64,000 bases of DNA, taken from assembly GCA_000092065.1 (NCBI GenBank), contig CP000596.1; one strand, 5' to 3'. The stretch is from Ostreococcus lucimarinus. Taxonomy: Eukaryota. The position numbers and the translations under genes were made by a program. The notes beneath the pieces were generated by a model. That model ran no database searches, was not told the DNA's origin, and worked only from the letters and a program-made list of their open reading frames with translations. This document shows positions 1,033 through 59,436 of the stretch, piece by piece. How positions within the stretch are numbered: position 1 is the first letter of the stretch; each line of letters begins with the position of its first letter.

Positions 1033-1253
1033 CGTCGACGAACGCGCGCCGCGCCGACGGCGAGTGCGGGCTCTTACTTGATCGAGTCTCAGGTCGGTCG
1101 AGGAGGCCTAAACCCGCCGCAGTCGGCGAGACGCGAGCGCGCTCACTGTTAATGTTCAATAAAGATGTTGCATTAAAGATGTCGCACTGTAAGTTGTACT
1201 GTAGAGTTGAAATAGTTAAAATGACGGTGTTTTGGATTTTACGTCCAAGTCAA

Positions 1254-13162: not shown

Positions 13163-13202
<40 letters not shown>

Positions 13203-13569
13203 CGGACTCGGCGGCGGCGGCGGGCTCGGCGGCGGCGAACAATTCGCTATACCCTCGCAATTCTCCGTTCGTGTTTGTCCCTCATACGCTCCACAACTTC
13301 GTCCACCGTTTCGCGGCTTGACGGTGATCGTGAACGTCTGCGAGTACGTCGCCGGTCCGCAAAAAGCCGTGCAACTCCCTTGCCAAAAGCCTACACAATC
13401 CGTTTTCGGCGGCGACGGCGACGACCCCCCGTGGACCCCTCGCAGCGACGACAGCGCGCTCGCGACGACCAACCCGCGCATCATCGTTCGCGTCGCGTCC
13501 CATCGACGTCCGGCGCCATCGCGCGTCGTCGACCGCGACGGCGCGCGTCGTTCGCGAAGCTGACGCGGC

Positions 13570-14919: not shown

Positions 14920-14941
14920 ATGGCCGACGACTTAGTGTTCG
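14920..14941 (+). CDS. SUI1: eIF1/SUI1 exon 1 (22-nt micro-exon encoding MADDLVF plus the first base of the next codon). The intron spans 14942-15363 (422 nt; GTGCGT donor, GAGACTGACGAG branch site at 15323-15334, CAG acceptor).
   Basis: The SUI1 homology region (…NDPFANEA…YIHIRVQQRNGRK) has no in-frame Met before an upstream stop at 15297. The only GTGCGT in the 5' flank follows ATG GCC GAC GAC TTA GTG TTC G. Splicing to CC AAC GAT... gives MADDLVFANDPFANEA..., which matches the eIF1 N-terminus (MSDLD..AFDPFADA). Confidence 0.55.
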
Positions 14942-15363
14942 GTGCGTCGACGCCACGCGCGCGGCGCGTCGCGATCGCGTCGCGGCGCGCGCGCGGCGAC
15001 GCGATCGCGACGCGCGATCGCGACCTCGAATCGCGAACGATTCTTTCGGCGTCGCGCGGTTCGCGGCGCGCGCGCGCGCGAAGGGCGCGCGCGCGCGCGC
15101 GATGGACGCGCGATCGTCGCGCGCGACGGCGAGCGGCGCGAGCGGGGACGACGCGACGCGCGCGGGACGGGAAAACGGGACGATGGAGGGATCGCGCGGC
15201 GCGAGGGCGCGCGAGACGACGAGGCGCGCGGGAAGCGCGCGGATCTCGGACGAGACGCGCGAGGGATGACGAGGGATGACGAGGGATGGGGCGCGATGAC
15301 GACGACGACGACGACGCGAACGAGAGACTGACGAGAGGCGCGCGACGAATCCGCGAGACGCAG

Positions 15364-15713
15364 CCAACGATCCCTTTGCTAACGAAGCGCTTGACTTTGG
15401 AGACGAAGAAAAGCCAAAAAAGGAAAAGAAGGAAACCGCGGACTCGGTTCAGGAGAACTACATTCACATTCGCGTGCAACAGCGTAACGGACGTAAGAGC
15501 TTGACGACGGTGCAAGGACTCAACCCGAAGATCAACAAGAAATTGGTGCTCAAGGATCTCAAGAAGAAGTTCAACTGCAACGGATGCATCGTTGAGGATC
15601 CCGATCACGGAGACATCGTTCAGCTTCAAGGAGACCAGCGTAAGCAAATCGCGACGTTCCTTCTCGAGGCGAAGATTTCTAAAAAGGCGTTGATCAAGGT
15701 GCACGGGAGTTAA
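15364..15713 (+). CDS. SUI1: eIF1/SUI1 translation initiation factor, exon 2
   Basis: The protein reads YIHIRVQQRNGRKSLTTVQGLNPKINKKLVLKDLKKKFNCNGCIVEDPDHGDIVQLQGDQRKQIATFLLEAKISKKALIKVHGS, ending at TAA 15711-15713. Confidence 0.85.
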
Positions 15714-16035
15714 AATCTCACGCGCGTGATTTCACGACGGACGCGACGAGACGTCCAAAATTTTACTTACACGTTACACGACGCAAACGCGCGACTGGGA
15801 GACGGCGACCGCCGAAAGACAGACACGTTGAGGGGGGGTAGATTTTTTACCCGCGGCGCTCGCGCCGCCGGTGTACTTCTTGTAGCTTTCTCTTAGCGTT
15901 GTCAGATACGAAATGATACGAATTGCGTGACTTTCGTTTACCAGCCAAACTTCGTCAAGGGCGCGCTCTCGCGAGACGTCGAGTTTAAAAGTTCAATCTC
16001 ACACTACACACACCGCTCGTTCGATTCGTTCGCCG

Positions 16036-16827
16036 CTATTCTTCCTCATCCGGCGACGCGGCCTCGTCTTCGGTCGCCGCCTCCGCCGCGTCGTCGCCGC
16101 GTCGTTTCGTCCCCCACGAGCGCGCCTTTTCGTTCCTCGCCTTCGCCGCGGCCCTGCGCTCGTTCGCGCCCCCCCCGACCGGCCCGCTCACGACGACGTT
16201 CTTATAATTCTCCCCGCTCGACGTCATTTTCAGAATTTTAAATCCGCACAGCTCTCCGACCACGGGCGCGTCCACCTTCCCCCCCCCCGCCGCCGCTCGC
16301 TCCGCCGTCGTCGGCGGCGCTCGACCTCGATACGCTCTCGCCGGCAAAAACGCAATCATTCCCGCGATCCCCACCGCGTACCCCCCGTTCACCGCGTTCA
16401 ATATCCTCCCTTTCACCGTCGCACCCGCGTCGCGCGCTCGCACGAGCTCCCTCCACACCCGCTCCAGCGACCGCCGTCTCGCCAGCCCCTTCACCTCCAG
16501 GTCGAGCGCGCCCGCGGGATTATTCATCCACGTCACCCTCGCCTCCACGACGTCCCCGACCCGCGGCGTCGCGTCCAGCTCGCTCAACTTGTACGTCACC
16601 GCGCCCCGGATCCCCGTCAGCGCGCTCGCGACGCCGTTCCGCGCGTCGACGGCGACTATTCTCGTCGCGATGACTTTGCCCTGCACGCACGGCATCAGCG
16701 CGTTGTGCGCCGCGTCGTCGCGCGTCGGCGTCGAGTGCGGCGCCGTGGCGTCGCGCGTCGTCGTCGTCGTCGTCGCCGCGCCGCGCCGTCCCGCGAGACG
16801 CGCGAGCGCGACGCCGCGTCGAATCAT
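16036..16827 (-). CDS. Small S1-type RNA-binding-domain protein with a probable organellar transit peptide (MIRRGVALARLAGRRGAATTTTT...)
   Basis: S1-like segments are GKVIATRIVAVDARNGVASALTGIRGAVTYKLSEL...VGDVVEARV and ATVKGRILNAVNGGYAVGIAGMIAFLPARAY, followed by an acidic/basic tail. The start is a real ATG at 16825-16827. An alternative internal start lies at 16693-16695. The rest of the 627-aa track ORF upstream is Arg-rich and was rejected. Confidence 0.5.
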   Translation of the reverse strand: MIRRGVALARLAGRRGAATTTTTTRDATAPHSTPTRDDAAHNALMPCVQGKVIATRIVAVDARNGVASALTGIRGAVTYKLSELDATPRVGDVVEARVTWMNNPAGALDLEVKGLARRRSLERVWRELVRARDAGATVKGRILNAVNGGYAVGIAGMIAFLPARAYRGRAPPTTAERAAAGGGKVDAPVVGELCGFKILKMTSSGENYKNVVVSGPVGGGANERRAAAKARNEKARSWGTKRRGDDAAEAATEDEAASPDEEE

Positions 16828-16905
16828 CGTCGCGACGATCGGGACGCGCGTCGATCTGCGGCGCCGCACACGCGCGCGCGGGAGACGCGCGGCGCGGCGA
16901 CGACG

Positions 16906-18279
16906 ATGCGCGCGGCGACGCGCGCGACCGCGGCGCGCGTCGCCGCGACGCGCGCGCGCGCGCGACGCGCGAGGGCGACGACGATTCGCGACGACGATTC
17001 GACGCGGCGTCGTCGCCGCGCGTCTCGCGCCGAGGCGCGGCGCGGCGACGACGACGACGGCGCGAGCGGCGCGAGGGAGACGGCGCCCCGCGCGTCGGCG
17101 CAGGCGCGGGCGTCGGCGATGGACGCGGTGTGGGCGCGCGCGCACCCGAAGTACCTGCAGTCGGACGCGCTCGACGACGCGTTTTGCGACGAGATCGAGC
17201 GCGCGGACGACGTCGCGCGACGGCGGGACGCGGCGAAGATCGGGGCGTCGTCGCGGGAGGGCGGCGCGGGCGCGGCGGGCGACGAGGGGGCGGACGAGGC
17301 GGTGGATTACATTTGGACGGCGATTCGAGAGGAGGCGAGGCGAGACGCGGCGAGGGAGCCGATGCTGTCGAGCTCCCTGTACGCGAGCGTGCTCAGTCAC
17401 GACACGCTGGAGCAGAGCTTGAGCTTCGTGTTGGCGAATAAGTTGGCGGACAGCACGCTGCTGCCGACGCAGCTGATGGAGATTTTTAACACGGTGCTGA
17501 CGGAGGAGGAGGAGACGGCGGCGGGCGCGGAGCTGCGCGAGGCGGTGAGGGCGGACGTCGCGGCGTTCAAGGAACGAGATCCGGCGTGCGTGGGGTACTC
17601 GCACGCGTTGTTGTTGTTCAAGGGGTTTCACGCGCTGGAGTCGCATCGCATTCAGCACGCGCTGTGGAACCGCGGGCAGAGACTCATGGCGTTGGCGATG
17701 CAGAGTCGAATCTCCGCCGTGTTCTCGATGGACATTCATCCGGCGGCGCGGTTGGGGAAAGGGATCTTGATCGATCACGGCACGGGTGTGGTGATCGGTG
17801 AGACGTGCGTGATCGGAGACTCGGTGAGCATCTTGCAAGGCGTCACTCTGGGGGGCACCGGGAAGGCGGTCGGCGACCGTCATCCCAAAATCGAGTCGCA
17901 CGTCTTGATCGGCGCGCACAGCACCGTGCTCGGGAACATCAAAGTCGAGCGCGGATCGATGATCAGTGCGGGGAGCTTAGTGTTGAAGCCCGTCGCGGCG
18001 CACACCATGGTCGCTGGCTCGCCCGCGAAGGTCGTGGGTAAGGTTCGCGACAGCAAACCGTCGCTCGTCATGGACCATCACATCACGCCCATGGCGCCGA
18101 CGTTTTGCGACGACTTGGAAGAGGCGGTGCGTCGACAAGTGAGCGAGGAGAAAGAGAAGTGGACTCGCACGGCCGAAGATGAGGATCGAGTGCGCTCGCA
18201 AGTGATTTCCGCGGACGAGAAGAGGCGGCGAAGACGCGATCGAGGCAGTAGAAGCGGCGGCGATTCGTCGACGCGATGA
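16906..18279 (+). CDS. Serine O-acetyltransferase (SAT/SERAT; left-handed beta-helix hexapeptide acyltransferase) with an R/A/T-rich presequence and a roughly 110-aa C-terminal extension
   Basis: The core reads IHPAARLGKGILIDHGTGVVIGETCVIGDSVSILQGVTLGGTGKAVGDRHPKIESHVLIGAHSTVLGNIKVERGSMISAGSLVLKPV. The in-frame ATG at 16906 gives MRAATRATAARVAA..., and an alternative start (MDAVWARAHPKY) lies at 17119. The track ORF nominally begins at 16705 with GTG, which would overlap the divergent S1 gene. Confidence 0.8.
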   Translation: MRAATRATAARVAATRARARRARATTIRDDDSTRRRRRASRAEARRGDDDDGASGARETAPRASAQARASAMDAVWARAHPKYLQSDALDDAFCDEIERADDVARRRDAAKIGASSREGGAGAAGDEGADEAVDYIWTAIREEARRDAAREPMLSSSLYASVLSHDTLEQSLSFVLANKLADSTLLPTQLMEIFNTVLTEEEETAAGAELREAVRADVAAFKERDPACVGYSHALLLFKGFHALESHRIQHALWNRGQRLMALAMQSRISAVFSMDIHPAARLGKGILIDHGTGVVIGETCVIGDSVSILQGVTLGGTGKAVGDRHPKIESHVLIGAHSTVLGNIKVERGSMISAGSLVLKPVAAHTMVAGSPAKVVGKVRDSKPSLVMDHHITPMAPTFCDDLEEAVRRQVSEEKEKWTRTAEDEDRVRSQVISADEKRRRRRDRGSRSGGDSSTR

Positions 18280-18358
18280 TCGAGTTGTAACAAATGAACA
18301 GTAAATGAATTCACAGCTGCGTTCGCGCACGCCAATCGGACCGACTAAAGAATGTGTG

Positions 18359-19315
18359 TTAATCGAACGGGTCGATGCGAGGATCGTGCTCGGTCGCGAG
18401 CGCCATCCCGGTGCACAAGCACGACGTGCACATAACCTTCGCCGTGCCGCTGCACGTCGGACAAATACATCTCGTGTTCGACGTCGGATCGATCAATCGC
18501 CCCGGGCGGTTGCTCGTCGAGCACTCCGCGCACTGTAAGTACCCACTCCCCTTGCAATACATGCAAATCTTCTTGCGCTGCTCTTTGACGTTTTGAATTT
18601 CGATGACGAAGAAGGCGGAAATCGCCCCCACGGCGCCGCCCGTGAACGAAGCCACGATCGGATCAACCTGCGCGAGCTGCGCGGGCAAGTGCACGCTATC
18701 TATGAACTCCGCGTACGACGTCCCGCCGAGCCCGAGTTTCACTTCCGCCATGGGTGCGATCAACCCTCCGAAGAGGAGCAAAAATCCCACCGCCGCGCCC
18801 CAATAAATCCGATAATCCTTCACGCTATCCTCCGTCAACACCGGGAATCCCGGGATCACGGACTCGAACTCCCGCGTCTCCTTCACCTCATCGTCGTCCA
18901 ACCCGATCGTCTTCACGCGCTGCTGCACCCGCAACCGTCGCAACTCCTCCATCAACAAAAACAATCGCTGTCGGCGACTCTCGATGTTCTGCGCGATCTC
19001 CCCCGCCTGCATGTCCGCGAAATCCACCACACTGTTCCGCCCCTCGATGATGCAATAATTCTCCGGCAACGCTTGCGAATCAAAATCTCGCGCCTCGCCC
19101 TCCGCGTCGTCCTCCTCCGCGTCGTCGTTCGCCGCCGTCGTCGCCGCGCCCTCGCCTTCGCCCTCGCCGATCGCTCTGCGCGTCCCTCCCGCGCGCGTTC
19201 GCGCCCATTCCGCGCGCGCCGTCCGCGACGCTTTCGCGCGCATCCGCACTCGCGCGTTCACCGCCCCCGTTCGCGCGCGCATCGCGCATCGCGTCGTCGG
19301 CGTCGTCGCGCGCAT
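18359..19315 (-). CDS. OR: ORANGE (OR) protein: plastid DnaJ-like Cys-rich zinc-finger membrane protein, the phytoene-synthase holdase
   Basis: Near-identity to plant OR over the conserved core: CIIEGR..VDFA.M...I..NI.SRR...FLLMEE.RRLR.QQR; GLGGTSYAEFI; QVDPIVASFTGGAVGAISA; CMYCKGSGYLQC; KVMCTSCLCTGMALATEHDPRIDPFD. There are two TM helices and CxxCxGxG motifs. Confidence 0.9.
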   Translation of the reverse strand: MRATTPTTRCAMRARTGAVNARVRMRAKASRTARAEWARTRAGGTRRAIGEGEGEGAATTAANDDAEEDDAEGEARDFDSQALPENYCIIEGRNSVVDFADMQAGEIAQNIESRRQRLFLLMEELRRLRVQQRVKTIGLDDDEVKETREFESVIPGFPVLTEDSVKDYRIYWGAAVGFLLLFGGLIAPMAEVKLGLGGTSYAEFIDSVHLPAQLAQVDPIVASFTGGAVGAISAFFVIEIQNVKEQRKKICMYCKGSGYLQCAECSTSNRPGRLIDPTSNTRCICPTCSGTAKVMCTSCLCTGMALATEHDPRIDPFD

Positions 19316-19517
19316 GGCGCGACGCTTTTCGCCCTTTCGCGTCTTCTCGACGCCGTCGACGCGTCGTCGGGCCGCCGTTCGGCGTCGCGAGGCGGTCGGT
19401 CGGCGCGCGCGCTCGCGCGCTCGCGCTCGCGCGTCGCCGCGCGCGTCGGCGTCGGCTCGAGGCGCGCTGTGCGGCGTCGACGCGCGCGCGGGTTATCCGG
19501 AGCGGCCGTCGCCGCTG

Positions 19518-19533
19518 AACCCTAGCTAGGGTT
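19518..19533. promoter_or_regulatory. Perfect 16-bp palindrome AACCCTAGCTAGGGTT (telo-box-like AACCCTA core on both strands) in the OR/QS bidirectional promoter
   Basis: Read directly from the sequence; it is self-complementary. It contains TAGGGTTTAG, which is about 1.4 units of the plant telomere repeat TTTAGGG. It lies within the 384-bp spacer between divergent start codons 19315 and 19700. Confidence 0.4.
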
Positions 19534-19699
19534 TAGACGTATCCATCGCCGACGCCGTCGCCGCGACACGGCGACGCGCGCCGACCGCCCGACGCGCGCG
19601 CGCGACGCCGACGCGCGCGCGACGCTCGCGCCGACCGCCCGCGCGCGCCGACGCGCGCCGACGCGCCGACGCGCCGACGCGACGACGCGAAACGTCGCG

Positions 19700-21742
19700 A
19701 TGACGGCGGCTCGGACGTCGTCGACGTCGGCGCGCGCGACGACGCGCGGGACGGCGACGGCGAGGCGCGGAAGAGCGCGACGCGGCGCGGAAGAGCGACG
19801 CGCGATCGCGCGGCGCGCGATGACGCGCGAGACGACGACGGGCGGGAGCGTGCGGGAGCGCGCGTCGGCGGCGAGCGCGAGGGTTCGGGACGCGGGCGCG
19901 AGCGTCGCGGACCGCGTGAAATGGTTGATCGCGCTCGCGCGAACGCGGGGCGGCGACGACGCGTGGCTGGACGAGGATGGGAGAAATGCGACGACGCGCG
20001 TGATGGGGTGCGCGTCGGCGAGCTGGATCGAGGCGGTGGTGGATGAGGCGAGCGGACGGGTGCGAGCGCGATGCGCGAGCGAGAGCGACGCGACTCGAGG
20101 ATACGGAACGTTGTTGTGCGAGGCGTTGAGCGGTGGGACGGTGGATGAGTGCTTGGAGCTGGGAGATGATTTCGTGGACGCGATGGAGATCGGGATCGGG
20201 TCCAAGGTGGAGAAGTCGCGAACGAATGGGTTTAAGAATATGTTAGAGACGGCGAAGAAGCAGTTGCGAACGCTTCGAGCCGACGCCGGAGGGGATCCGT
20301 TTCCGAGCTTGATCGTCACCGCGGACGAAGTGCGATCGCGTGGATCGTTTGCGGCGTCGCAGGCGTCGTATTTGGAGCCCGATGCGGGCAAAGTGAAGGC
20401 TTTGGTCGAGGCGTTGTCGACGAAGAAGATCGGCATCGTGGCGCACTTTTACATGGATCCCGAGGTGCAAGGCATTTTGATGGCCGCAAAGGCGTCGTAT
20501 CCGCACATCGCCATCAGCGATTCGCTCGTCATGGCGGATTTAGCGGTGAAGATGGTCGAGGACGGGTGCGAGACGATCGGGGTGTTGGGGGTGGATTTCA
20601 TGTCTGAGAACGTTCGCGCCATCATCGACGAAGCCGGGCACGCGGACGCCAAGGTGTATCGCATGGCGGCGGAAGACATCGGATGCTCGCTCGCGGAAGC
20701 CGCACAGAGCGAAAGTTACGATAGCTATCTCGAAGATGCGAGTAAGACGAAGAACTCGGTGCACGTGATTTACATCAACACTGGTTTGGACACCAAGGCG
20801 GCGGCGAATGCGAAAATTCCCACCATCACGTGCACGTCTTCCAACGTCGTGGCGACGGTTTTGCAAGCCGCGGCGCAGATTCCCGACGTGCACGTATTTT
20901 ACGGCCCCGATACGTACATGGGCGGGAACTTGGCCGAGCTCTTGCGTCGGATGACGACGTGGGACGACGAGGACATCAAGGCGATGCATCCGGCGCACGA
21001 CAGAGAAACCGTCAAGGCGCTCTTGCCTCGTTTGAAGTACTTCAACGACGGCACGTGCATGGTGCACGACATGTTCGGCGAAGACGTTTGCAACACCGTG
21101 CGCGCGTTTTACGGCGATGCGTACCAAACCGCGCACTTTGAAGTTCCCGGAGAAATGTTCAAGCTCGCCATGGAGGCGAAGGATCGCGGGTTGGGCGTCG
21201 TCGGCTCGACGCAAAACATCTTGGATTACACGTGCGCGCGCGTGGACGAAGCCATCGAGCGCGCGCTTCCCGAAGGCGAACGTTTGCGATTCGTGCTCGG
21301 CACCGAGACTGGGATGGTGACGTCCATCGTGCGCGCGGTGCAGGCGCGTCTTCGCGCGGCGCGCGACGCGGGCGTTCGCGGCGTCGAAGCCGAAATCGTC
21401 TTCCCAGTTTCCGCCGACGCCATCACCGCCACGGGCGACGCGGAGATCCCTGTCGTGCCCGGCGTCGTCGCGGGCGAAGGGTGCTCGCTCGACGGCGGGT
21501 GCGCGTCTTGTCCGTACATGAAGATGAACTCGTACGACGCGTTGATGAAGATGTGCGACAAAATCGGCTCCGCCGCCGGCGAAGCCGTGCTCGCCGCGCA
21601 GGAGCCGCGCAAATACGAAAGCGCGGACGGCGCGGGTCCATCCATCGCATCGCAAGGATGCGTTCCGATCTTACACATGCGGCATTTCCAAAAGAACAAG
21701 ACGTTTAGCGACGCGTTGGTCGAGGACATCACCACTCGTTAA
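19700..21742 (+). CDS. QS: Quinolinate synthase (NadA) with an N-terminal SufE-like domain (the plant plastid QS/SufE3 architecture) and a transit peptide
   Basis: The SufE-like region reads RVMGCASASWIEAVVDE...LLCEALSGGTVDECLEL. The NadA core includes IGIVAHFYMDPEVQG, ITCTSSNVV and GTETGMVTSIV, plus a C-terminal GCSLDGGCASCPYMKMN. Confidence 0.9.
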   Translation: MTAARTSSTSARATTRGTATARRGRARRGAEERRAIARRAMTRETTTGGSVRERASAASARVRDAGASVADRVKWLIALARTRGGDDAWLDEDGRNATTRVMGCASASWIEAVVDEASGRVRARCASESDATRGYGTLLCEALSGGTVDECLELGDDFVDAMEIGIGSKVEKSRTNGFKNMLETAKKQLRTLRADAGGDPFPSLIVTADEVRSRGSFAASQASYLEPDAGKVKALVEALSTKKIGIVAHFYMDPEVQGILMAAKASYPHIAISDSLVMADLAVKMVEDGCETIGVLGVDFMSENVRAIIDEAGHADAKVYRMAAEDIGCSLAEAAQSESYDSYLEDASKTKNSVHVIYINTGLDTKAAANAKIPTITCTSSNVVATVLQAAAQIPDVHVFYGPDTYMGGNLAELLRRMTTWDDEDIKAMHPAHDRETVKALLPRLKYFNDGTCMVHDMFGEDVCNTVRAFYGDAYQTAHFEVPGEMFKLAMEAKDRGLGVVGSTQNILDYTCARVDEAIERALPEGERLRFVLGTETGMVTSIVRAVQARLRAARDAGVRGVEAEIVFPVSADAITATGDAEIPVVPGVVAGEGCSLDGGCASCPYMKMNSYDALMKMCDKIGSAAGEAVLAAQEPRKYESADGAGPSIASQGCVPILHMRHFQKNKTFSDALVEDITTR

Positions 21743-21853
21743 TCCTTCGTCTCCGCGCGCGCGGCGAATGGAATCAAACGGAATCAAAACAGTTGTCGAG
21801 AGTTGCAATACTACAATAAAGTGATAGCACCACCCATCGCCGTCGCGCACTTC

Positions 21854-22264
21854 CTACTCCTGCGCCCCCTTGACGCCGCGCGTGATGGGATCCTTCGCCA
21901 CGCTCAAAAGCTCCAAGTCGAGCGTCACCGTCCCGTTCGCCGGGATCTCCATGACCTCGTTCGGCCCGTACGCGTACTCCGGCGGCACGATCATCCGTCG
22001 CACCGTCCCGACGCCCATGCCCTTGATCCCCTCGTTAAACGCCTGTATGAACGGTCCTCCCGGCTCTCCCGCGGGTTGCCCGACGGTGAATCCGATCGGC
22101 GTCCCTCCCGTGACGCCCGCGCCCTGCCTCGACGTCCCCACCGTCACCGACCGAAACTTCAAGTCGTAGTGCACCGCCACGCGCGCCCCCTTCGGCACGC
22201 CCCCCGTCGCGCCGCTCGCGCCCTGTAAATCGTAGTACAGTATCGGCGGGTTCGTTCCCGGGAT
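21854..22264 (-). CDS. Thylakoid-lumen-type FKBP peptidyl-prolyl isomerase, exon 2. The intron spans 22265-22346 (82 nt).
   Basis: The FKBP domain reads PKGARVAVHYDLKF...GFTVGQP...FIQAFNEGIKGMGVGTVRRMIVPPEYAYGPNEVMEIPANGTVTLDLELLSV. It is one frame out of phase with the upstream Tat-signal ORF. The two are joined in phase by an 82-nt intron with a GTGCGC donor, GAGACTGACGA branch site and CAG acceptor. Confidence 0.7.
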   Translation of the reverse strand: MPGTNPPILYYDLQGASGATGGVPKGARVAVHYDLKFRSVTVGTSRQGAGVTGGTPIGFTVGQPAGEPGGPFIQAFNEGIKGMGVGTVRRMIVPPEYAYGPNEVMEIPANGTVTLDLELLSVAKDPITRGVKGAQE

Positions 22265-22346
22265 CTGCGTCGCGTCGCGCGTCGTCAGTCTCGCCGTCGT
22301 CGTCGCGTTCGTTCGCGGCGTTCGTCGTCGTCGTCGTCTCGCGCAC

Positions 22347-22577
22347 CGGCTGAAAGTTCTCGATCGGCACCCCTCCCGTGACGCCTCCCGAGAGTTTCGC
22401 GCGCGCCGCGCCCGGCGTCGCGACGAGCGCCAGCGCGGCGCCGACGAGCGCGTCGCGGCGTCGCGCGACGTCGCTCGATGCCGACGCGGACGCGCGCGGC
22501 CGCGTCTTCATCGCGCGTTCGCGTCGTCCTCGCGTCGCGCCGACGCGCGCGGGCGCGACGGCGCGTCGACAGCGCAT
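22347..22577 (-). CDS. Lumenal FKBP exon 1 (77 codons): short transit region plus a twin-arginine (Tat) lumenal signal
   Basis: The exon encodes MRCRRAVAPARVGATRGRRERAMKTRPRASASASSDVARRRDALVGAALALVATPGAARA|KLSGGVTGGVPIENFQP. An RRR-hydrophobic-AxA pattern precedes the FKBP domain. The start is a real ATG at 22575-22577, and an alternative ATG lies at 22509-22511. Confidence 0.6.
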
Positions 22578-22751
22578 GGCGTTCGCGCGCGCGCGCGCGC
22601 GGGGTCGCGGATCGGCGCGGTGGGACGCCCTCGCGTCGAGGAATGGCGACGATCGACGCGTCGAGCGCGGCGTCGAGCGCGCGCGAGCGGAAGAAACGCG
22701 CGCGACGCGTCGAAGGCGCGGCGATGGACGCGATGCGCGCGCGTGACATCG

Positions 22752-25475: not shown

Positions 25476-25599
25476 GGCGCGCGCGGACGAGGCGGCGAGG
25501 CGGGCAATGGGGCGCGAGGGTGATGATTCGGCAAAAATCTCGAGGCGGCGACGCGAGGCGAGCTAGAATGTGTCGATGTCAGAATTTCAAGAAAGAATA

Positions 25600-27873
25600 T
25601 CACGCTTCGCTGACGTTGCCGAGCAAGCTCATGCCGGACCTGTCTTCGATTTCCTCGAACCCGATTCCTCGCGGCGGGTTGGGGGGGATCTCGCCGAGCA
25701 AGTCGCGGCGGTCGAGGATGATTTCCAAATCTTTGTCGGAGATGTTGGCGGACTGCGGTGAATCCTCGTCGTTGGCGCCGGTTTCGCCCTTGAGGAGAGC
25801 CATGAGTTCGTCAGCGCCGAAAGCGCGACCGTCGTCGTTTTTCTCTTGTTTGAACCCGCCGTTGGTGACGACGAGCTTCTCGAGAGCGAGCTTGGAGGCG
25901 GCTTTTTTGAGCATTTTTCCTTCGACGGATTTCGCCGTGGCCAAGCGGTAGACGTGCACGGGCTTGGTTTGACCGATTCTGTGCACGCGATCCATCGCTT
26001 GCAAATCTTGATGCGGGTTCCAATCGCTGTCGTAAATGATAACGGTGTCACCGCCCGTGAGGTTGATGCCTAATCCTCCCGCGCGGGTCGAGAGCAAAAA
26101 GATGCCGTACTTCGGGTCTTCGTTGAATCGAGCGATGAACTCGCGACGGTCGTCTTGTTTCACCGAGCCGTCGATTCTGCACACCGGTTCGCCGCGCTGT
26201 TGGAAAAATGATTCGAGCAAGTCGAGCATGCGCGTCATCTGAGAAAAGATCAACACCTTGTGTCCGCGCGCGCGCAGGCGCGTCATCAACCTATCGAGGA
26301 GCTGCATCTTCCCGCACTGTTCCACGAGTTCGTCCGCGGAGGGGAACATGATGGATCCGTCCAGACCGCCGGTGATCAAATCCGGGTGGTTGCAGTTTTT
26401 CCGCAGTTGCATGAGCATGTTGTTCACAGCGGTGTGACCGACGGGAATGTGGCTGTTGCCCGCGAATTTCGTCAGCATCTCGGTGATGGTTTTGTTCACC
26501 AACGCGTCGTTGAACTCTTTTTGCTTTGGAACCATTTGCGCGTACAAAAGAATCTCCTTCTTGCGCGGAAGCGAAAGCTCGACGTCGCCCTTTAATCGGC
26601 GCAACAAAAATGGTCGCAAAATACCGTGCAACTTGCTCACGACGCGCGCGCGATGCTCTTGTTCATTCTTATCGACCACCTCCTGCTCTTGCGATTCGTC
26701 GTTCCCGATGTTGTCGGCAAAGTCAAACCAAGATTGGAACTGCGACAGCGAACTGAAGACGTCTGGGAGCAAAAAGTGCAAAAGCGACCAAAGCTCGGGC
26801 AAGTTGTTCTGGAGCGGCGTGCCGGTGAGCAACAACTTGTTCGCGGTGGGAATGTACTTGAGCTCGCGAATGAGCTTGCAGTCAAAGTTTTTCAATCTGT
26901 GACCTTCGTCCACGACCAAGTACTTGAAGTTGTACTTGGCCAAAAACTTGCGATCGGCCATGACGACTTCGTACGAGGTGACGATGACGGGGAAATCGGG
27001 TTTGATCGGCGTCGACGTCGGCAAGAATTCGATTCGCTTCTCCGCGCGTTCTTGCCTCGTGCCGTGGTACAAAAGCACGGGAATCGACGGCGTCCAACGT
27101 TGAAACTCGCTCACCCAATTGCTCAGCGTCGATAACGGACCGATGACGAGATACGGTCCCAACACGCCCTTCGATCGCAAGTGCGATAAAAAACCAATCG
27201 TCTGCACCGTCTTCCCGAGACCCATCTGGTCCGCCAAGATTCCGTTCAAGCCGTTTTGATATAAAGAAATCATCCAATTCACCCCCTTGAGCTGATAATC
27301 CCGCATCGAACCGCCCTCCATGAGCGGCAGCATCTTTCTCGTCGCCTCCAACTCCTCGCTCTCGCTCATCTTTTTCCGCTTCTTCGTCGCCTTCGCCTTG
27401 TCCCCATCCTTCCCGTGCTCGTCCTCCAGCGTGTCCATCTGCTCGCTCAAAAACTGCGAATAAATCGTCGTCTGATCCAGCAGCGCGTCCAACTGTTTAA
27501 ACTTTTTATCGTCCAACTTCGTCGTCCCGCTCGCCGCCGCGCTCGCGTCCTCGCTCGCGCCCTTCCCGCCGCCCTTCCCGCTCGGCGACGCCACGCGCGC
27601 CTTCTGCAGCTCCGCCTCCGCCTCGATCGCGTGCGCCTCGATCCCCGTCAGCGCCGACGCCGTCAGATCATCGTACGATTCCTCCGCGTCCGCGTTCACT
27701 CGCACCAGCCCCCCCCCGGCGCCGTCGTCGTCGTCGCCGTCCCGTTCCGTCGTCGTCATCATCTTTTCCCGCGCATCTCCCCCCGCGTCGTCGTCCTCGC
27801 GCGCGCTCTTCGCCGCGCCTTCGCCCGCGATCGGCGACGACGCCTTGCGTCGCTTCGCCCCGTTCGGCGCCAT
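25600..27873 (-). CDS. SNF2-family chromatin remodelling ATPase, DDM1/HELLS (LSH)-like, about 757 aa
   Basis: The SNF2_N motif is DYQLKGVNWMISLYQNGLNGILADQMGLGKTVQTIGFLSHL, followed by DEGHRLKN and the helicase-C QAMDRVHRIGQTKPVHVYRL. Its small size and N-terminal coiled-coil suit DDM1/HELLS better than ISWI. The real ATG is at 27871-27873 (MAPNGAKRRK); the track start at 28017 is GTG. Confidence 0.8.
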   Translation of the reverse strand: MAPNGAKRRKASSPIAGEGAAKSAREDDDAGGDAREKMMTTTERDGDDDDGAGGGLVRVNADAEESYDDLTASALTGIEAHAIEAEAELQKARVASPSGKGGGKGASEDASAAASGTTKLDDKKFKQLDALLDQTTIYSQFLSEQMDTLEDEHGKDGDKAKATKKRKKMSESEELEATRKMLPLMEGGSMRDYQLKGVNWMISLYQNGLNGILADQMGLGKTVQTIGFLSHLRSKGVLGPYLVIGPLSTLSNWVSEFQRWTPSIPVLLYHGTRQERAEKRIEFLPTSTPIKPDFPVIVTSYEVVMADRKFLAKYNFKYLVVDEGHRLKNFDCKLIRELKYIPTANKLLLTGTPLQNNLPELWSLLHFLLPDVFSSLSQFQSWFDFADNIGNDESQEQEVVDKNEQEHRARVVSKLHGILRPFLLRRLKGDVELSLPRKKEILLYAQMVPKQKEFNDALVNKTITEMLTKFAGNSHIPVGHTAVNNMLMQLRKNCNHPDLITGGLDGSIMFPSADELVEQCGKMQLLDRLMTRLRARGHKVLIFSQMTRMLDLLESFFQQRGEPVCRIDGSVKQDDRREFIARFNEDPKYGIFLLSTRAGGLGINLTGGDTVIIYDSDWNPHQDLQAMDRVHRIGQTKPVHVYRLATAKSVEGKMLKKAASKLALEKLVVTNGGFKQEKNDDGRAFGADELMALLKGETGANDEDSPQSANISDKDLEIILDRRDLLGEIPPNPPRGIGFEEIEDRSGMSLLGNVSEA

Positions 27874-28203
27874 CGTCGCGCCGTCGCGTCGCGTCGCGTC
27901 GCGTCGCGGCGTCGCGCGCGCGTTTGACGTCGACAGCCGACGTCGATCGTTCGAAACGCGCGCGCGCCCGTAATGTTCGCGCCTTTGGATCGTCGCGGCG
28001 GTCGCGGTCGCGGGCACGAAAACGCGTATTGTATGCGTTTTTCGTGCATTGTTGTCGATGTTTGTACTTTTTTTATCCGACTGTCCGACTGTCCGAACGA
28101 TGATTCAAAATCCACCGGCCCCGCGCGTCAGAGGTCGTCGGATCGATCGAACGCGCGCGCGCGCGCGTCGAGCGAACGAGCGCGCGCGTCGCGGACGCGG
28201 ACG

Positions 28204-28743
28204 ATGTCGACGATGTCGATGATGCCGATCGCGTCGACGTCGGCGCGAACGACGCGAACGCGCGCGCGCGCGCCGAGAACGACGCAGACGCGGGCGCCGC
28301 GGATGAAGATGGGGCGGGCGACGCGAGCGACGACGCGGACGCGGGCGATCGCGAACGAGGCGCAGACGAGCGAGGAGTTGAACTTTTGGGGGAAGATGCG
28401 ACAGGCGTATCGAATCTTTTTCCCGCCGAGCGCGGAGGAGAACGCGCGGAACGAGGCGAAGAAGCGCCTGCGAATGATTCTCGTCGCCGATCGGTGCACG
28501 ATGAGCGAGAGCTCGATGGACGAGATGAAGGCGAAGATAATGACCGTGGTCGGGGAATTCGTGGACGTGGACGATTCGCAGGAGGTGGACGTGAGCATGA
28601 ACACGGATGAGGAGTTGGGGACGATGTACGCGGTGTCGATTCCGGTGAAGCGCGTCAAGGCGGAGTACGACGCGGAGAACGACGCGTACATGTTGGGGGC
28701 GCAGTTCGTGTACGACGACGAGAACGTGTGGGACGACGAATGA
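28204..28743 (+). CDS. MINE: Plastid division topological specificity factor MinE, with a transit peptide
   Basis: AKKRLRMILVADRCTMSESSMDEMKAKIMTVVGEFVDVDDSQEVDVSMNTDEELGTMYAVSIPVKRV matches plant MinE (KKRLRLMLVSDRC...VEVNMSTDE...AVNIPVRRV). The start is ATG 28204 (MSTMSMMP...). Confidence 0.85.
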   Translation: MSTMSMMPIASTSARTTRTRARAPRTTQTRAPRMKMGRATRATTRTRAIANEAQTSEELNFWGKMRQAYRIFFPPSAEENARNEAKKRLRMILVADRCTMSESSMDEMKAKIMTVVGEFVDVDDSQEVDVSMNTDEELGTMYAVSIPVKRVKAEYDAENDAYMLGAQFVYDDENVWDDE

Positions 28744-28868
28744 TTAATTTTACTCGCGCATCGAGCGACGGGCGACGGACGGCGCGCGCGCGACGCGCGT
28801 CGATCGAGGCGACCGCGACCATTGTAAGCAAATCAAACGACAGACGGACCGCGTCACTTCGCCTCGCG

Positions 28869-29441
28869 ATGTCCGACGCGCGCGCGGCGTCGGGGCTCGA
28901 CCCCAAAACGTGGGCCGGCGCCTTCGACTGCGCGCGGTGCGCGCGCAAGCGCCTGCCCGCGATCGAATTCAGCAAAAAGGCGCTGCTCAGGATGCGCGAG
29001 CGCGGCGACGATGCCGGGACGTGCAAGGCGTGCGTCGACGCCGAGGCCGCGATCGAGCGCGCGCGCGCGAGGGAGAGCGCGAGCGCCGTCGACGACGACG
29101 CGGACGCGACGTGCGCGGCGTGCGGGGCGACGAAACCGGCGAGCGCGTTCTCGAAGACGCAGCGGCGCGGCGCGGCGCCGCGGTGCGGCGAGTGCGTCGA
29201 CGCCGCGGCGAGGGACGACGCGGCGCGCGGCGCCGCGGCGCTGGCGAAATCGTTGGAATCGGCGAGGGTCGACGCCGCGAGGGTCGGGGCGACGCTGGGG
29301 GATCACGTGCGAGAGACGAATCTGGACGCGGAGGCGGTGACGGGGTTGCGGGCGAAGTTCGTCGGCGCGCGGGGACGCGGACGCGGGCGAGGACGGTCGG
29401 CGAATCCGAACTCCATGCTCGGCCGAGGGGGGCGGAAGTGA
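28869..29441 (+). CDS. Small tandem CxxC zinc-ribbon protein with two C-x2-C…FSK…C-x2-CVD repeats (Stc1-like domain)
   Basis: The two repeats are CARCARKRLPAIEFSKKALLRMRERGDDAGTCKACVD and CAACGATKPASAFSKTQRRGAAPRCGECVD, followed by an RG-rich tail. The overlapping ORFs 28910-29455(+) and 28987-29490(-) are Arg/Gly-rich and were rejected. Confidence 0.4.
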   Translation: MSDARAASGLDPKTWAGAFDCARCARKRLPAIEFSKKALLRMRERGDDAGTCKACVDAEAAIERARARESASAVDDDADATCAACGATKPASAFSKTQRRGAAPRCGECVDAAARDDAARGAAALAKSLESARVDAARVGATLGDHVRETNLDAEAVTGLRAKFVGARGRGRGRGRSANPNSMLGRGGRK

Positions 29442-29522
29442 GCGCGACGCGATGATAGTGACTAGCTAGCTCTATTCTAGAAGATTGCAACGTTGTTCGT
29501 TTTGCTAATGATTGCGCGCGGG

Positions 29523-31736
29523 CTATTCGTCTCGCGCCCAGACGTCGCTGTAGACTCCGGGACGCGAGCTCTTCGGCGGATTGGCGCGACGACGAATGTA
29601 CGGCCCGCTCGATCTGAACCGACCGGTGCCGTCGTCGGGGAGCGCTAAAGCGACGTCACCGATGAGCGGGGTCGCAGCCTCGGTCCTGTCGGTGCGACGT
29701 CGATTGAATGAAATGGTTGAATCGTCGTCGTCGTTGACGCTGTACGAAAACGCCTTGACGGGCTTGTGCGTCGCCGTGCCGAATTCGTCGGCATGTGTGA
29801 TGTACAAGTCTTCATCGAACGCCAAAAGATCGACGTCTTCGTCTTCGTCGTCGCCGTCTATGATGCCGTAATCATCGACGTCCCGGTTGAACGCGCGACG
29901 AAGCGTGCACACGCTCGCCGCGACGAACGTGATCAACACGACGACGGAAAAAGACAGGAAACGCCAGACATCCGCGTTGACCTGCGCCGAGGCGCGCTTG
30001 TACACTCGAACGTAGTCGACGTAATGAAACATGTCATCGTCGCACTGATTGAGCGCCGCAGGCATGCCGAACGGCGACACCGCGGTGTTCAGGATGAGAT
30101 AAAACGGCCATCGCGGAATGATGGGCACATTAAAGCGCGTCAAGTGATGCACGGGATGACCGTCGACGGTGAACGTCAAGCTATCCTTCGACCACTCCAC
30201 CGCATACGTGTGGAAATCCGCGCTGAAATCGATCGCGGGGTCCATCATGGGCGGGTACGCGCTTCGCGAGAAGCCTTCGGCGCCGCACTCCGCCTTTGGG
30301 GCGAAATGATATCCCGATTCCACCGTTCCCGCACGCGTCCCGGGCCCGCCCAAACCTCTGCCGTACGACTGCATGATGTCAATTTGCCCGCCAAGCGGCC
30401 AGCACGCGCGCTTCGGCACGCTCTTCTCGGGGTCAGGTAACATCCAGTGCTGCGGCCAAACGCCCGGACACTTGGACTCGGGAATCTTCGCGCGAATCTC
30501 AACTCGCCCGTACGTTTGCGTGAACGCCTCTTTCGTGTCCACCCAGCACGACAGGAACGGATACTGATCACCGCGACCACGATGACCCACGGCACCTCCG
30601 TGTGGCGTCGCGGCAGTGCGCACGCCTCGCTGACGCCGCGTCCCGATGACGAGCGCGCCGTCGACGACTTTACACATCTCGGGAACGTAAAACTGTTGCT
30701 GTCCGCCGTGTCGCTCTAAACCTGGCGCGCTCTCGTTCACCTTCGGTCGCCATTTCGATAAATCTAACGCATCACCGTCGAACTCGTCGCTGAACGTCAA
30801 CTCCCATCCCGGCTGTCTCGCGTCCTTCGACGAGGCGCCCTTCGTCGACCCCGGCACGCTTTGCGGAAACCCACGTCGAGGGGTCGCGCCCGCGCGCCGC
30901 CGCGCCGCCGCGCGCTCTTTTATCGCCGCCGCGTTCGCTGGCGGTCGAGTCGGCATCGTTCTCGCCGCCGACGGCGCGTCTTCTTCCCCTCCCGTCGCGC
31001 CGTCGCCCGCGCCGGCGAGCGCGTCTCTCGCGCGACGCAGCGCCTCGTCTGGATCCTCCAACGCCCCCAGCGCCGCCTCATCGCGTTCTCTGCGCATTCG
31101 CGCCCGTCTAATTTTCATCATCTGTCGCTTCGTCGGCGCCCTCGCGCCCAACCGCGCCGTCGAACCGCCCGCGTCGTCTTCGTCCTCCTCCTCGTCCTCG
31201 TACGCCTCCTCGTCCTCGTCCTCGTCCGCCCCGTACATCTCGTCCGGATCGTCCGGCGCCTCGTCCTCGACGATCCTGCGCATCAACGCGTCGTCCATCG
31301 TCCCGAACCGCGTCCCCGCGCTCGCGTCGACGTACCCCGGCGCGTCGCCCGCGTCGTCCCGCGCGTTGGGTGTTGCGTCTCGCGTCGTCCCGTCCCCGCC
31401 CGCGCCTTCGCCCGTCGCGCGTCCCGATCGCGCCCTCGCGAGCGTCGCGAGCGTCACCGCGCACATCGCCGCCCGCGCGCGACGCGACGTCGCGCCGCGC
31501 GTCGCGCGCCGCGATCGGCGCCGCGTCGAATGCGCGGCGTCCATCGCCTCGCGCGCGTCGTCCCGCGTCGACGTCGTCGCCGTCGGTCGCCGCGCGCCGC
31601 CGCGCGCGTCGCCGCCGTCGCGCGTCACGCGCGCGACGTCGCCGTGTGTCGCGCGCCGCGCCGCGCGACCGACGACCGACGCCGCGCGCGGGATGTTGGC
31701 GCCGCGCATAAAACCAATCGCGCGATTCGTTCGCAT
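29523..31736 (-). CDS. GH16-like (laminarinase/beta-1,3-glucanase fold) membrane protein with both catalytic Glu replaced by Gln. It has a long disordered acidic/basic N-terminal region, one TM helix after the GH16 domain, and a C-terminal tail.
   Basis: GH16 signatures are VWPQHWMLP and FHTYAVEWSKDSLTFTVDG. The active-site strand is WPLGGQIDIMQ, where GEIDIME would be expected (CAA/CAG codons at + 30369-30389). The TM helix FLSFSVVVLITFVAASVCTL follows the domain. There is no N-terminal signal peptide in the ORF starting at ATG 31734-31736, so the start may differ. Confidence 0.65.
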   Translation of the reverse strand: MRTNRAIGFMRGANIPRAASVVGRAARRATHGDVARVTRDGGDARGGARRPTATTSTRDDAREAMDAAHSTRRRSRRATRGATSRRARAAMCAVTLATLARARSGRATGEGAGGDGTTRDATPNARDDAGDAPGYVDASAGTRFGTMDDALMRRIVEDEAPDDPDEMYGADEDEDEEAYEDEEEDEDDAGGSTARLGARAPTKRQMMKIRRARMRRERDEAALGALEDPDEALRRARDALAGAGDGATGGEEDAPSAARTMPTRPPANAAAIKERAAARRRAGATPRRGFPQSVPGSTKGASSKDARQPGWELTFSDEFDGDALDLSKWRPKVNESAPGLERHGGQQQFYVPEMCKVVDGALVIGTRRQRGVRTAATPHGGAVGHRGRGDQYPFLSCWVDTKEAFTQTYGRVEIRAKIPESKCPGVWPQHWMLPDPEKSVPKRACWPLGGQIDIMQSYGRGLGGPGTRAGTVESGYHFAPKAECGAEGFSRSAYPPMMDPAIDFSADFHTYAVEWSKDSLTFTVDGHPVHHLTRFNVPIIPRWPFYLILNTAVSPFGMPAALNQCDDDMFHYVDYVRVYKRASAQVNADVWRFLSFSVVVLITFVAASVCTLRRAFNRDVDDYGIIDGDDEDEDVDLLAFDEDLYITHADEFGTATHKPVKAFSYSVNDDDDSTISFNRRRTDRTEAATPLIGDVALALPDDGTGRFRSSGPYIRRRANPPKSSRPGVYSDVWARDE

Positions 31737-32010
31737 CGCGCGCGCGTTTTACCCCATCATCGCGCGTTCGCGTTCGCCGACCCCGCGACGCGCGTAAATT
31801 CCGAGATGGGCGTCGCGAGGCGCGGAATGCGCGATCACCGATCGACGGCGTCGATGACCGATCGTGGGAATCGCGGTTACGGGCGCGACGCGCGATCGCG
31901 GAATTCACGCGCGCGCCGGCGCGAACCCCGCGGGGCGACCGGCGGCACATCGTCGCGCGTCGCGGAGCACTCAGGACGCTCTTAAGAAGGCAACGCGCGA
32001 GGATAAAATC

Positions 32011-32239
32011 ATGGCTCCGAAGCAAGGATCGAAGAAGGCGGCCGAGGGCATCAACGCGCGACTGCAGATCGTCATGCGATCGGGGCGGTACACGCTCGGG
32101 TACAAGCAGTGCCTGAAGACGCTGCGCAAGGGACAGTCGAAGCTCGTGCTGATCTCGAACAACTGCCCGGCGCTGCGCAAGAGCGAGATCGAGTACTACG
32201 CGATGTTGGCGAAGACCGGGGTGCATCACTACGCCGGAA
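32011..32239 (+). CDS. RPL30: 60S ribosomal protein L30e, exon 1
   Basis: [76 protein letters not shown] matches RPL30e. The GTGCGT donor lies at 32240. Confidence 0.85.
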
Positions 32240-32297
32240 GTGCGTGCGCGAGGCGACGCGATTCGACGCGATGCGACGCGCGAGGACGGGGGGGTGG

Positions 32298-32307
32298 AAA
32301 ACCCTAA
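32298..32307. promoter_or_regulatory. Telo-box AAACCCTAAA inside the RPL30e intron
   Basis: The intron sequence ggaaaaccctaaagacgg holds 1.4 units of the CCCTAAA (TTTAGGG) telomere repeat. In plants this matches the telo-box cis-element typical of ribosomal-protein gene 5' regions and introns. Confidence 0.4.
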
Positions 32308-32362
32308 AGACGGCGACGACGCGCGAGAGACTGACGAAGACGACGAACGCGTCGCGTGAACA

Positions 32363-32469
32363 GATAACGTCGATCTCGGCACGGCGTGCGGTCGATACTA
32401 CCGCGTGTCTTGCATGTCGATCACCGATCCGGGCGACTCCGACATCGTCAAGGCGGTGCCGGAGGAGTA
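32363..32469 (+). CDS. RPL30: 60S ribosomal protein L30e, exon 2 (the 123-nt intron spans 32240-32362)
   Basis: After the splice (phase 1) the exon encodes [35 protein letters not shown], which matches the RPL30e C-terminus ([29 protein letters not shown]). The intron carries the branch motif GAGACTGACGA and a CAG acceptor. Confidence 0.85.
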
Positions 32470-32727
32470 AACGCGCGAAGCCGTTCGGCGACGCGCGGGC
32501 GATTCTTCGGACGATGATTGGTTCGGGCGATCGCGACGCGATCGACGTCGCGAGTTTGCTTGTAATAGATCATCGACTCGCTTCGAGAGTTATTTTAAAT
32601 CGGTCAAACGTCGCGGGTGGTGATGAAACTCTGTATCTGGTCTTCTTTCCACTGAGGAGACGTCGTCTCGGCGACGTCATGAAGAGAATGTCCGCATACC
32701 TTCTGAACCCAACTCTCTTTTGCGTCG

Positions 32728-59406: not shown

Positions 59407-59436
59407 TCAGATCCCAAAATTAGAACCATAACTGTA

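Follow-up and report, generated by a model that had tools for sequence, protein, structure and literature searches.

A textbook case of convergence on strong splice signals among intron-poor eukaryotes is the strict signal set of Ostreococcus lucimarinus introns. The closest described set comprises 319 EST-confirmed O. lucimarinus introns outside chromosome 2, in which the donor consensus is GTGCGTG, the branch point reads ACTGAC in 87.2% and the extended form GACTGACG in 66.5% of cases, the acceptor is CGCAG and the distance from branch point to AG is 20-35 nt (Irimia and Roy, 2008; PLoS Genet 4:e1000148; PMC2483917). The canonical introns of Micromonas belong to the same strong-signal class, in the GC-rich bulk of the mamiellophycean genome, and combine an AG/GTGCGT donor with the branch point NCTGAC, so that the signal is lineage-wide (Verhelst et al., 2013; PMC3879977). 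A more distant parallel is provided by the hemiascomycete yeasts, which are likewise intron-poor and combine a near-invariant branch sequence, UACUAAC, with a 5' splice site that is strong but atypical, a likeness ascribed to convergence (Irimia and Roy, 2008; PMC2483917). However, yeast UACUAAC and Ostreococcus GACUGAC(G) differ at two positions, with a G·U wobble in place of A-U beside the branch A and a G instead of U as the first base, and the donors are GUAUGU and GUGCGU, respectively. The U1 of Mamiellales is reported as standard, without compensatory change (Roy and Bowser, 2022, preprint).

In the stretch of 64,000 nucleotides analyzed here (the window), four introns were delimited in the following gene models.

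14920..14941, plus strand: SUI1/eIF1 exon 1, a 22-nt mini-exon encoding MADDLVF plus 1 nt
14942..15363, plus strand: SUI1 intron, 422 nt, phase 1, donor GTGCGTC, acceptor ACGCAG
15324..15334, plus strand: SUI1 branch-site block GAGACTGACGA, putative branch A at 15331, 32 nt from the 3' splice site
15364..15713, plus strand: SUI1 exon 2 of the spliced CDS
22347..22511, minus strand: FKBP exon 1, encoding a 55-aa N-terminal targeting-like peptide with RRRDAL
22265..22346, minus strand: FKBP intron, 82 nt, phase 0, donor GTGCGCG, acceptor ACGCAG
22282..22292, minus strand: FKBP branch-site block GAGACTGACGA, putative branch A 20 nt from the 3' splice site
21854..22264, minus strand: FKBP exon 2, encoding the FKBP_C domain
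32011..32239, plus strand: RPL30e exon 1 of the spliced model
32240..32363, plus strand: RPL30e intron, 124 nt, phase 1, donor GTGCGTG, acceptor GAACAG
32327..32337, plus strand: RPL30e branch-site block GAGACTGACGA, putative branch A 29 nt from the 3' splice site
32364..32470, plus strand: RPL30e exon 2 of the spliced model
33946..34052, plus strand: listerin/LTN1 exon 1 of the spliced model
34053..34154, plus strand: LTN1 intron, 102 nt, phase 2, donor GTGCGTC, acceptor ACGCAG
34115..34123, plus strand: LTN1 branch-site block GACTGACGA in the context ACGACTGACGA, putative branch A 34 nt from the 3' splice site

The first-pass annotation had proposed the SUI1, FKBP and RPL30e introns, each beginning with GTGCG(T/C) and ending with CAG. 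Excision of these intervals indeed reconstitutes SUI1/eIF1, an FKBP of the lumenal type, and RPL30e. The spliced SUI1 CDS encodes a 123-aa protein (Pfam SUI1, E 3.4e-25) and its junction is that of an intronless homologue (L027), in which ATGGCCGACGATCTCGTCTTTGCGAACGATCCT encodes MADDLVFANDP across the junction. Since 82 nt is not a multiple of three, only removal of the intron joins FKBP exon 1 to the FKBP_C domain, which spans residues 79-175 (Pfam E 7.4e-14). Spliced RPL30e, a protein of 111 aa, gives a single-stretch match to Pfam Ribosomal_L7Ae (3-94 of 95) across the junction at residue 76/77; its intron ends at 32363, one base beyond the previously assigned end at 32362. The statement that three of three introns share the block was correct in that these three contain the exact 11-mer, but the fourth intron, that of LTN1, had been overlooked. 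ORF finders read through the LTN1 intron because it is in-frame and stop-free, and listerin has 1744 aa in ORF-based gene calls versus 1710 aa once the intron is removed. The identity of this gene follows from Pfam Ltn1_1st and related domains in gene calls on syntenic contigs, where the orthologous introns of 112 nt (L011) and 149 nt (L012) are flanked by conserved exon ends (…GG/GT and CAG/GTT(C/T)GG) and are frame-breaking, as neither length is a multiple of three. Judged by protein continuity and the comparative data, from which the splice junctions are deduced, the four intervals are real introns. Their acceptor is ACGCAG in three cases and GAACAG in RPL30e. As the branch nucleotide we infer, by analogy and not by mapping, the second A of ACTGAC.

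The comparison with the canonical O. lucimarinus introns (PMC2483917) revealed likeness in donor type, branch motif, CGCAG preference and spacing. The four donors GTGCGTC, GTGCGCG, GTGCGTG and GTGCGTC fit the published GTGCGTG-type signal, GACTGACG is present in four of four introns, and the distances from the branch A to the last intron base (32 nt in SUI1, 20 nt in FKBP, 29 nt in RPL30e and 34 nt in LTN1) fall within 20-35 nt. They are shorter than the 43-52 nt between branch site and acceptor in Micromonas (PMC3879977). Relative to the published 8-mer, the 11-nt block noticed in the first pass adds three flank positions, which are weakly biased in a cross-lineage sample of 17 introns, and nothing else substantive. 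We consider it highly probable (about 0.93) that the window is nuclear DNA of O. lucimarinus or a near-identical strain and that its introns are four ordinary U2-type 'canonical' introns with a strict donor and a strict GACTGACG branch consensus. The organism is indicated by exact matches at the protein level and by XP_001422044 of O. lucimarinus CCE9901 as a member of one protein cluster. The block and the donor are the already-known strict signals of ordinary O. lucimarinus introns, and the finding is real but ordinary; with GTGCGTG and GACTGACG described in 2008, its discovery value is small. One of the two explanations offered originally, a rigid yeast-like branch-point element, is supported and corresponds exactly to the signals reported by Irimia and Roy (2008). 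In the strict sense of the yeast type, that is, an invariant UACUAAC with perfect pairing to the GUAGUA of U2, the window motif GACUGAC departs from UACUAAC.

For comparison between lineages, syntenic contigs of other Ostreococcus lineages, in which the GH16 neighbor is 90% or ~60% identical, were used together with metagenome SUI1 loci. Ten metagenome contigs with an identical GH16 protein had introns that were 100% identical and hence uninformative. An intron occupies the same site of SUI1 in L015, L019, L021, L022, L025 and L037 and in the Bathycoccus-like, AT-rich contigs L045, L046 and L052. Orthologous introns of RPL30e were present in L011-L014 and that of FKBP, with a length of 63 nt, in L013. 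In these orthologs the position, GT(G/A)CG and (G)ACTGAC(G) are kept, while lengths differ and interiors are unalignable. In the sister strain L019, the SUI1 branch block forms a perfectly conserved island of ~29 nt within an intron that is otherwise ~75% identical, with indels. Over the 17 introns from several lineages, the information content was 1.4 bit for the first G, 1.7 bit for A, 2.0 bit for CTGAC, which had served to locate the site, and 1.5 bit for the last G. Among these introns, strong constraint across lineages is limited to the 8-mer GACTGACG. The earlier emphasis on identity over 11 nt was therefore justified for GACTGACG but not for the flanks G-A…A, which carry 0.5-0.7 bit and read AC for GA in LTN1. 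The branch-to-acceptor segment contains 0-8% T in O. lucimarinus-type introns versus 21-53% in the orthologous introns of sister Ostreococcus clades; the polypyrimidine tract is absent from the former and kept in the latter. A pyrimidine-rich tract is also present in Micromonas-like contigs (L041).

In this reading, the shared GTGCG(T/C) is the strict 5' splice-site consensus of the genome, and the shared block is its strict branch-site consensus GACTGACG, flanked by three bases with a weak bias. If the mechanism resembles that of yeast UACUAAC, SF1/BBP would bind the block first. The block would then pair with the GUAGUA box of U2 snRNA (A-U, C-G, U-A, G·U, bulged branch A, C-G), and this pairing would set the position of the branch adenosine at 20-34 nt before the (C)GCAG acceptor. 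Because O. lucimarinus-type introns have no polypyrimidine tract, the branch block presumably bears most of the 3'-end recognition. The G that directly precedes ACUGAC would lie opposite A38 in a standard U2 and form a G·A mismatch, so that canonical U2 pairing leaves the strong conservation of this G unexplained.

Three other origins of the shared signals were weighed against this reading. The similarity could be a coincidence of GC-rich, GACG-rich sequence, as had been allowed for from the start, and indeed neither GACTGACG (4 copies observed versus 4.16 expected, whole window, both strands) nor ACTGAC (14 versus 19.6) is over-represented window-wide. The donor string GTGCG alone is uninformative as well, with 310 occurrences over both strands. 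Yet the 11-mer GAGACTGACGA is found in three exact copies, 15324-15334(+), 22282-22292(-) and 32327-32337(+), where 0.07 were expected, and three copies were reached in 0 of 100 dinucleotide-preserving shuffles of the window. Each copy lies inside an interval opening with GTGCGT or GTGCGC and closing with CAG. All four GACTGACG copies are intronic, on the sense strand and 20-34 nt from the acceptor; placement and not frequency is the non-random feature of this motif in the window. Moreover, the core is kept in orthologous introns whose remaining sequence has turned over. Placement and conservation across lineages together refute chance, to which we assign a negligible probability. Minor, U12-type introns are just as improbable. 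A rigid 5' splice site combined with a rigid branch site is classic for this type, the consensus being /GTATCCTT or /ATATCCTT (/RTATCCTT) for the donor and TCCTTAAC, 10-20 nt from the acceptor, for the branch site. The window introns read GTGCG… and GACTGACG at 20-34 nt and do not match this consensus. In green algae, Davila Lopez (2008) found no snRNAs other than U2-dependent ones, and we reject a U12-type identity in view of the sequence and of this reported absence of minor snRNAs.

Descent from a mobile introner-like element, as known from Micromonas pusilla, Aureococcus and some fungi, was the second of the original explanations, according to which the block would be inherited from the ancestor element. 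In its favor, related algae do possess introners. Of the Micromonas elements IE-A/B/C/D, which resemble the window introns in GT…AG ends, IE-C of strain RCC299 (~67 nt, 221 copies) carries the GACTGACG branch motif and is about as short as the FKBP intron (Verhelst et al., 2013; PMC3879977). In addition, blastn without low-complexity filter aligned the FKBP and LTN1 introns with 77% identity over 88 nt, the SUI1 and LTN1 introns both start with GTGCGTCGAC, and the FKBP and LTN1 introns both finish with CGCGACGCAG. However, the FKBP/LTN1 match consists of GACGAC low complexity (whole-intron z 2.2). The family structure that had been suggested as a check was not found: after removal of donor, branch block and acceptor, pairwise local alignments of the interiors gave z values from -0.49 to 1.62, and the observed scores were reached by 22-207 of 300 dinucleotide shuffles. 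Lengths are not uniform (82, 102, 124 and 422 nt), terminal inverted repeats beyond the splice consensus are missing (6-10 of 20 terminal identities), and neither a target-site duplication nor a duplicated exon/intron junction was present. Pairing between donor and acceptor ends was at consensus level (GUGCG/CGCAG) and not greater within than between introns (4.93 vs 4.68). Neither the window nor the 20 kb of extra flank yielded further copies. Introners are multi-copy, alignable lengthwise and located at lineage-specific sites, whereas the window introns are unalignable, of varied length and at ancient shared sites. The introns are older than the corresponding lineage splits, since divergent Ostreococcus lineages have all four positions in common with the window and Bathycoccus-like contigs also have that of SUI1. 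Orthologous introns keep the signals only, and selection on nothing but these signals across lineages again argues against introner origin. The Micromonas introner studies consulted describe such elements in Micromonas only, with none reported for Ostreococcus. We conclude that an introner origin of these introns is not supported and largely refuted; we rate it as very improbable.

A refinement of the ordinary U2-type reading, which we regard as unlikely, is that the branch consensus of O. lucimarinus and close relatives extends beyond the 8-mer, roughly to R-A-GACTGACG-A. Upstream G-A is found in three of the four window introns and downstream A in all of them. A first-order model of intron interiors gave 0.024 for this flank set and p ~0.03 for at least three of four introns sharing any triple, AG being a rare dinucleotide in these introns. 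Of the 17 introns from several lineages, 16 have a purine at -3, and neither G at -2 nor T at +2 occurs in any of them. Judging by the universal U2 sequence, a standard U2 snRNA might offer U39 and C40 as pairing partners for A at -2 and G at -3, respectively. On the other hand, the set holds only four independent O. lucimarinus introns, that of LTN1 has AC at -3/-2, and other lineages show TG, CG, AC or AA as upstream flanks and C, G or A at +2. The flank bias of 0.5-0.7 bit is small and in part compositional, because T makes up 2-8% of these introns. With the same reserve, O. lucimarinus-type lineages may have moved 3'-end recognition almost wholly onto the extended block, with loss of the polypyrimidine tract. 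If true, this would provide a natural within-genus contrast for the trade-off between branch-site and polypyrimidine-tract (SF1/U2AF) recognition.

Scanning of the window for signals combined with ORF joining yielded only the four introns among the well-supported candidates. The interval 59251-59423, considered as an intron joining adjacent ORFs, was rejected as the gap that separates two sulfotransferase-like genes in tandem, which have a stop and a start of their own, and a scan for T-poor windows proved far too unspecific as a composition-based intron finder. No further introns or copies were found in 10 kb of extra flank on each side of the window. Rfam searches of the window and 144 kb of related loci detected neither snRNAs, including U2, nor intronic snoRNAs, and a tRNA search of the window was negative. 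The literature search for the string GACTGACG returned primer matches only. The host region has 60-69% GC and ~1 intron per 20 kb, whereas the outlier region of chromosome 2 is low-GC and intron-dense. The motif pair of donor and branch site is a dependable intron finder in the O. lucimarinus genome and revealed the fourth, in-frame intron of LTN1.

The exact sharing of an 11-nt branch block by the SUI1/eIF1, FKBP and RPL30e introns, all starting with GTGCG(T/C), was confirmed: the 64-kb window holds three exact copies of GAGACTGACGA and no more, at 15324-15334 (+), 22282-22292 (-) and 32327-32337 (+), against an expectation of 0.07, and none of 100 dinucleotide-preserving shuffles contained three. 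Every copy lies inside an interval that begins with GTGCGT or GTGCGC and ends with CAG. By itself GTGCG is uninformative here, as the window holds 310 copies on both strands. The first-pass annotation was right that these three introns carry the exact block, but its count of three of three overlooked a fourth intron, in LTN1, and the RPL30e intron ends at 32363 rather than 32362.

Introns of the window
14942-15363 (+), SUI1/eIF1; splicing yields a 123-aa protein with a Pfam SUI1 domain
22265-22346 (-), FKBP; 82-nt intron between an N-terminal targeting-like peptide and the FKBP_C domain
32240-32363 (+), RPL30e; splicing yields a 111-aa protein with a Ribosomal_L7Ae domain
34053-34154 (+), LTN1 (listerin); GTGCGTC…ACGACTGACGA…ACGCAG

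The SUI1 junction MADDLVF/ANDP is uninterrupted in an intronless metagenome homologue, and in RPL30e the Ribosomal_L7Ae match is a single stretch (positions 3-94 of 95) crossing the junction at residue 76/77. Without splicing, the FKBP targeting-like peptide and the FKBP_C domain (Pfam E 7.4e-14) are in different frames. The LTN1 block matches the 11-mer at 9/11 bases. This intron of 102 nt is in-frame and free of stop codons, so that ORF callers translate it as exon; on metagenome contigs, prokaryote-style gene calling gives a listerin of 1744 aa with 34 spurious residues, the spliced product having 1710 aa. Since the orthologous interval measures 112 and 149 nt in two related lineages and is flanked by conserved exon ends, it must be spliced out. 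When the window was scanned for ORFs that could be joined across a donor, a branch-like signal and an acceptor, no other convincing intron emerged, and none did in an extra 10 kb on each side. Two weakly sulfotransferase-like ORFs, 57823-59406 (+) and 59472-61157 (+), of 527 and 561 aa and 65 nt apart, were considered as one spliced gene; this was rejected, and they appear to be tandem paralogues.

The 8-mer GACTGACG, which forms the core of the block, is not enriched overall (4 observed versus 4.16 expected), yet all four copies are intronic and on the sense strand, and the distance from the presumed branch A to the last intron base is 32 nt in SUI1, 20 nt in FKBP, 29 nt in RPL30e and 34 nt in LTN1. 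Its non-random feature is thus placement rather than abundance. Outside introns it is absent from both strands of the whole window, where dinucleotide shuffles predict about four copies; it is possible that cryptic branch sites are avoided, or the absence may be due to chance (p ~0.02).

These signals are those already described for this species. In EST-confirmed O. lucimarinus introns outside chromosome 2, the donor is the atypical GTGCGTG, ACTGAC is present in 87.2% and the extended 8-mer in 66.5%, CGCAG is the preferred acceptor and the branch-to-AG distance is ~20-35 nt (Irimia & Roy 2008, PMC2483917). All four window introns agree with this set in every respect. Of the two readings initially offered, the first, a rigid branch-point element, is therefore correct; the strict branch site is real and was published in 2008. 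Micromonas canonical introns likewise have an AG|GTGCGT donor and an NCTGAC branch motif (Verhelst et al. 2013, PMC3879977). U1 is standard in five Mamiellales (Roy & Bowser 2022 preprint), so the odd donor comes without a compensatory U1 change. Three proteins encoded in the window belong, as exact members, to marine metagenome protein clusters, one of which includes XP_001422044 of O. lucimarinus CCE9901.

The intron positions of RPL30e, FKBP, LTN1 and SUI1 are common to other Ostreococcus lineages, as seen on syntenic contigs fetched via the neighbouring GH16 gene (L011, ~90% protein identity; L012-L014, ~60%) and among 80 metagenome loci retrieved with the SUI1 protein; that of SUI1 also occurs in AT-rich, Bathycoccus-like contigs. 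The interiors are unalignable, and lengths vary (124, 123, 162, 129 and 159 nt for RPL30e; 218-422 nt for SUI1). All orthologous introns begin with GT(G/A)CG, and 20-50 nt from a YAG they retain (G)ACTGAC(G), or ACTAAC in the AT-rich lineage. The SUI1 intron of the nearest sister strain (99% protein identity) is ~75% identical, with indels; ~29 nt around the branch block form an island of perfect conservation, and a second island lies at the 3' end. In a same-species contig this intron has lost 55 nt close to its 5' end (367 versus 422 nt). SUI1 has no intron in one lineage (L027, 575-925; 77% protein identity), and another (L037, ~2690-2800) has a second SUI1 intron, likewise GTGCGTT…GACTGACG.

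Information content was computed over 17 introns from Ostreococcus lineages. Around ACTGAC the preceding G scored 1.4, the first A 1.7 and the following G 1.5 bit; CTGAC scored 2.0 bit but had served to locate the site. The three extra positions of the 11-mer (-3, -2 and +2) reached only 0.7, 0.5 and 0.5 bit. The unit conserved across lineages is hence the published 8-mer. All three flank bases are common to 3/4 window introns; a first-order intron-composition model gives 0.024 for the observed flank set and ~0.03 for at least 3/4 introns with any common triple, values whose lowness stems in part from the rarity of the dinucleotide AG in these introns. The consensus may thus be modestly extended in this species, four introns being too few to establish it.

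The second reading, descent of the introns from a common introner-like mobile element, is not supported. IE-C introners of Micromonas RCC299 do bear the same 8-mer (Verhelst et al. 2013, PMC3879977). When the four interiors, stripped of donor, branch block and acceptor, were compared for family structure, however, pairwise local-alignment scores fell inside the dinucleotide-shuffle distribution (z -0.49 to 1.62), and a blastn match of the FKBP intron to the LTN1 intron (77% across 88 nt) proved to be GACGAC low complexity. The defining introner-family features tested are lacking: the four introns have no target-site duplications and, outside the splice consensus, no terminal inverted repeats, their lengths range from 82 to 422 nt, and their positions are older than the divergence of the compared lineages. 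Over 4-7 nt, the donor consensus GUGCGUC is the reverse complement of the acceptor consensus GACGCAG, for example at these termini:

14942-14948 and 15357-15363, SUI1
34053-34060 and 34147-34154, LTN1

Pairing potential is nevertheless about equal within (4.93 of 7) and between introns (4.68 of 7), so that end complementarity is a property of the consensus rather than intron-specific covariation.

As for the rigid branch-point element, the segments between branch block and acceptor are GACG-rich and contain 0-8% T.

Branch-to-acceptor segments
15333-15363, SUI1
22265-22283, FKBP
32336-32363, RPL30e
34122-34154, LTN1

The O. lucimarinus introns thus have no polypyrimidine tract, whereas in sister Ostreococcus clades this segment of the orthologous introns contains 21-53% T, which suggests that the branch block bears most 3'-end recognition in the O. 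lucimarinus lineage. On the model of UACUAAC, SF1/BBP would bind the block, which would then pair with U2 GUAGUA (A-U, C-G, U-A, G·U, bulged branch A, C-G). The conserved G preceding ACUGAC would face an A in standard U2, and canonical pairing would leave its conservation unexplained.

Within the RPL30e intron, a telomere-repeat-like telo-box lies at 32298-32309 (AAAACCCTAAAG, core AAACCCTA). It is the sole conserved interior element besides the splice signals in all five lineages compared, taking the forms gaaaaccctaaag, gaaaaccctaaaag, gaaaaccctagag and aaaaaccctaag in orthologous introns (including L012, L013 and L014). The core occurs twice in the window versus 0.23 expected. In plants, telo-boxes act as cis-elements in genes for ribosomal proteins and translation factors.

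The SUI1 intron contains a short tandem repeat at 15262-15295 (GAGGGATGAC, ~3x) and long CGCGCG runs. In blastn it matches many GC-rich non-coding stretches of the two strands at ~70%, indicating that non-coding DNA of the window shares a low-complexity CG/GA composition. The first ~12 kb have 51-57% GC versus 60-69% elsewhere; this low-GC start (1-13571) is almost wholly one 4105-aa ORF, 1254-13571 (-), with EF-hand matches, all weak, GGC-type coding repeats and identical 50-nt stretches at 7662 and 8265, ~603 nt apart.
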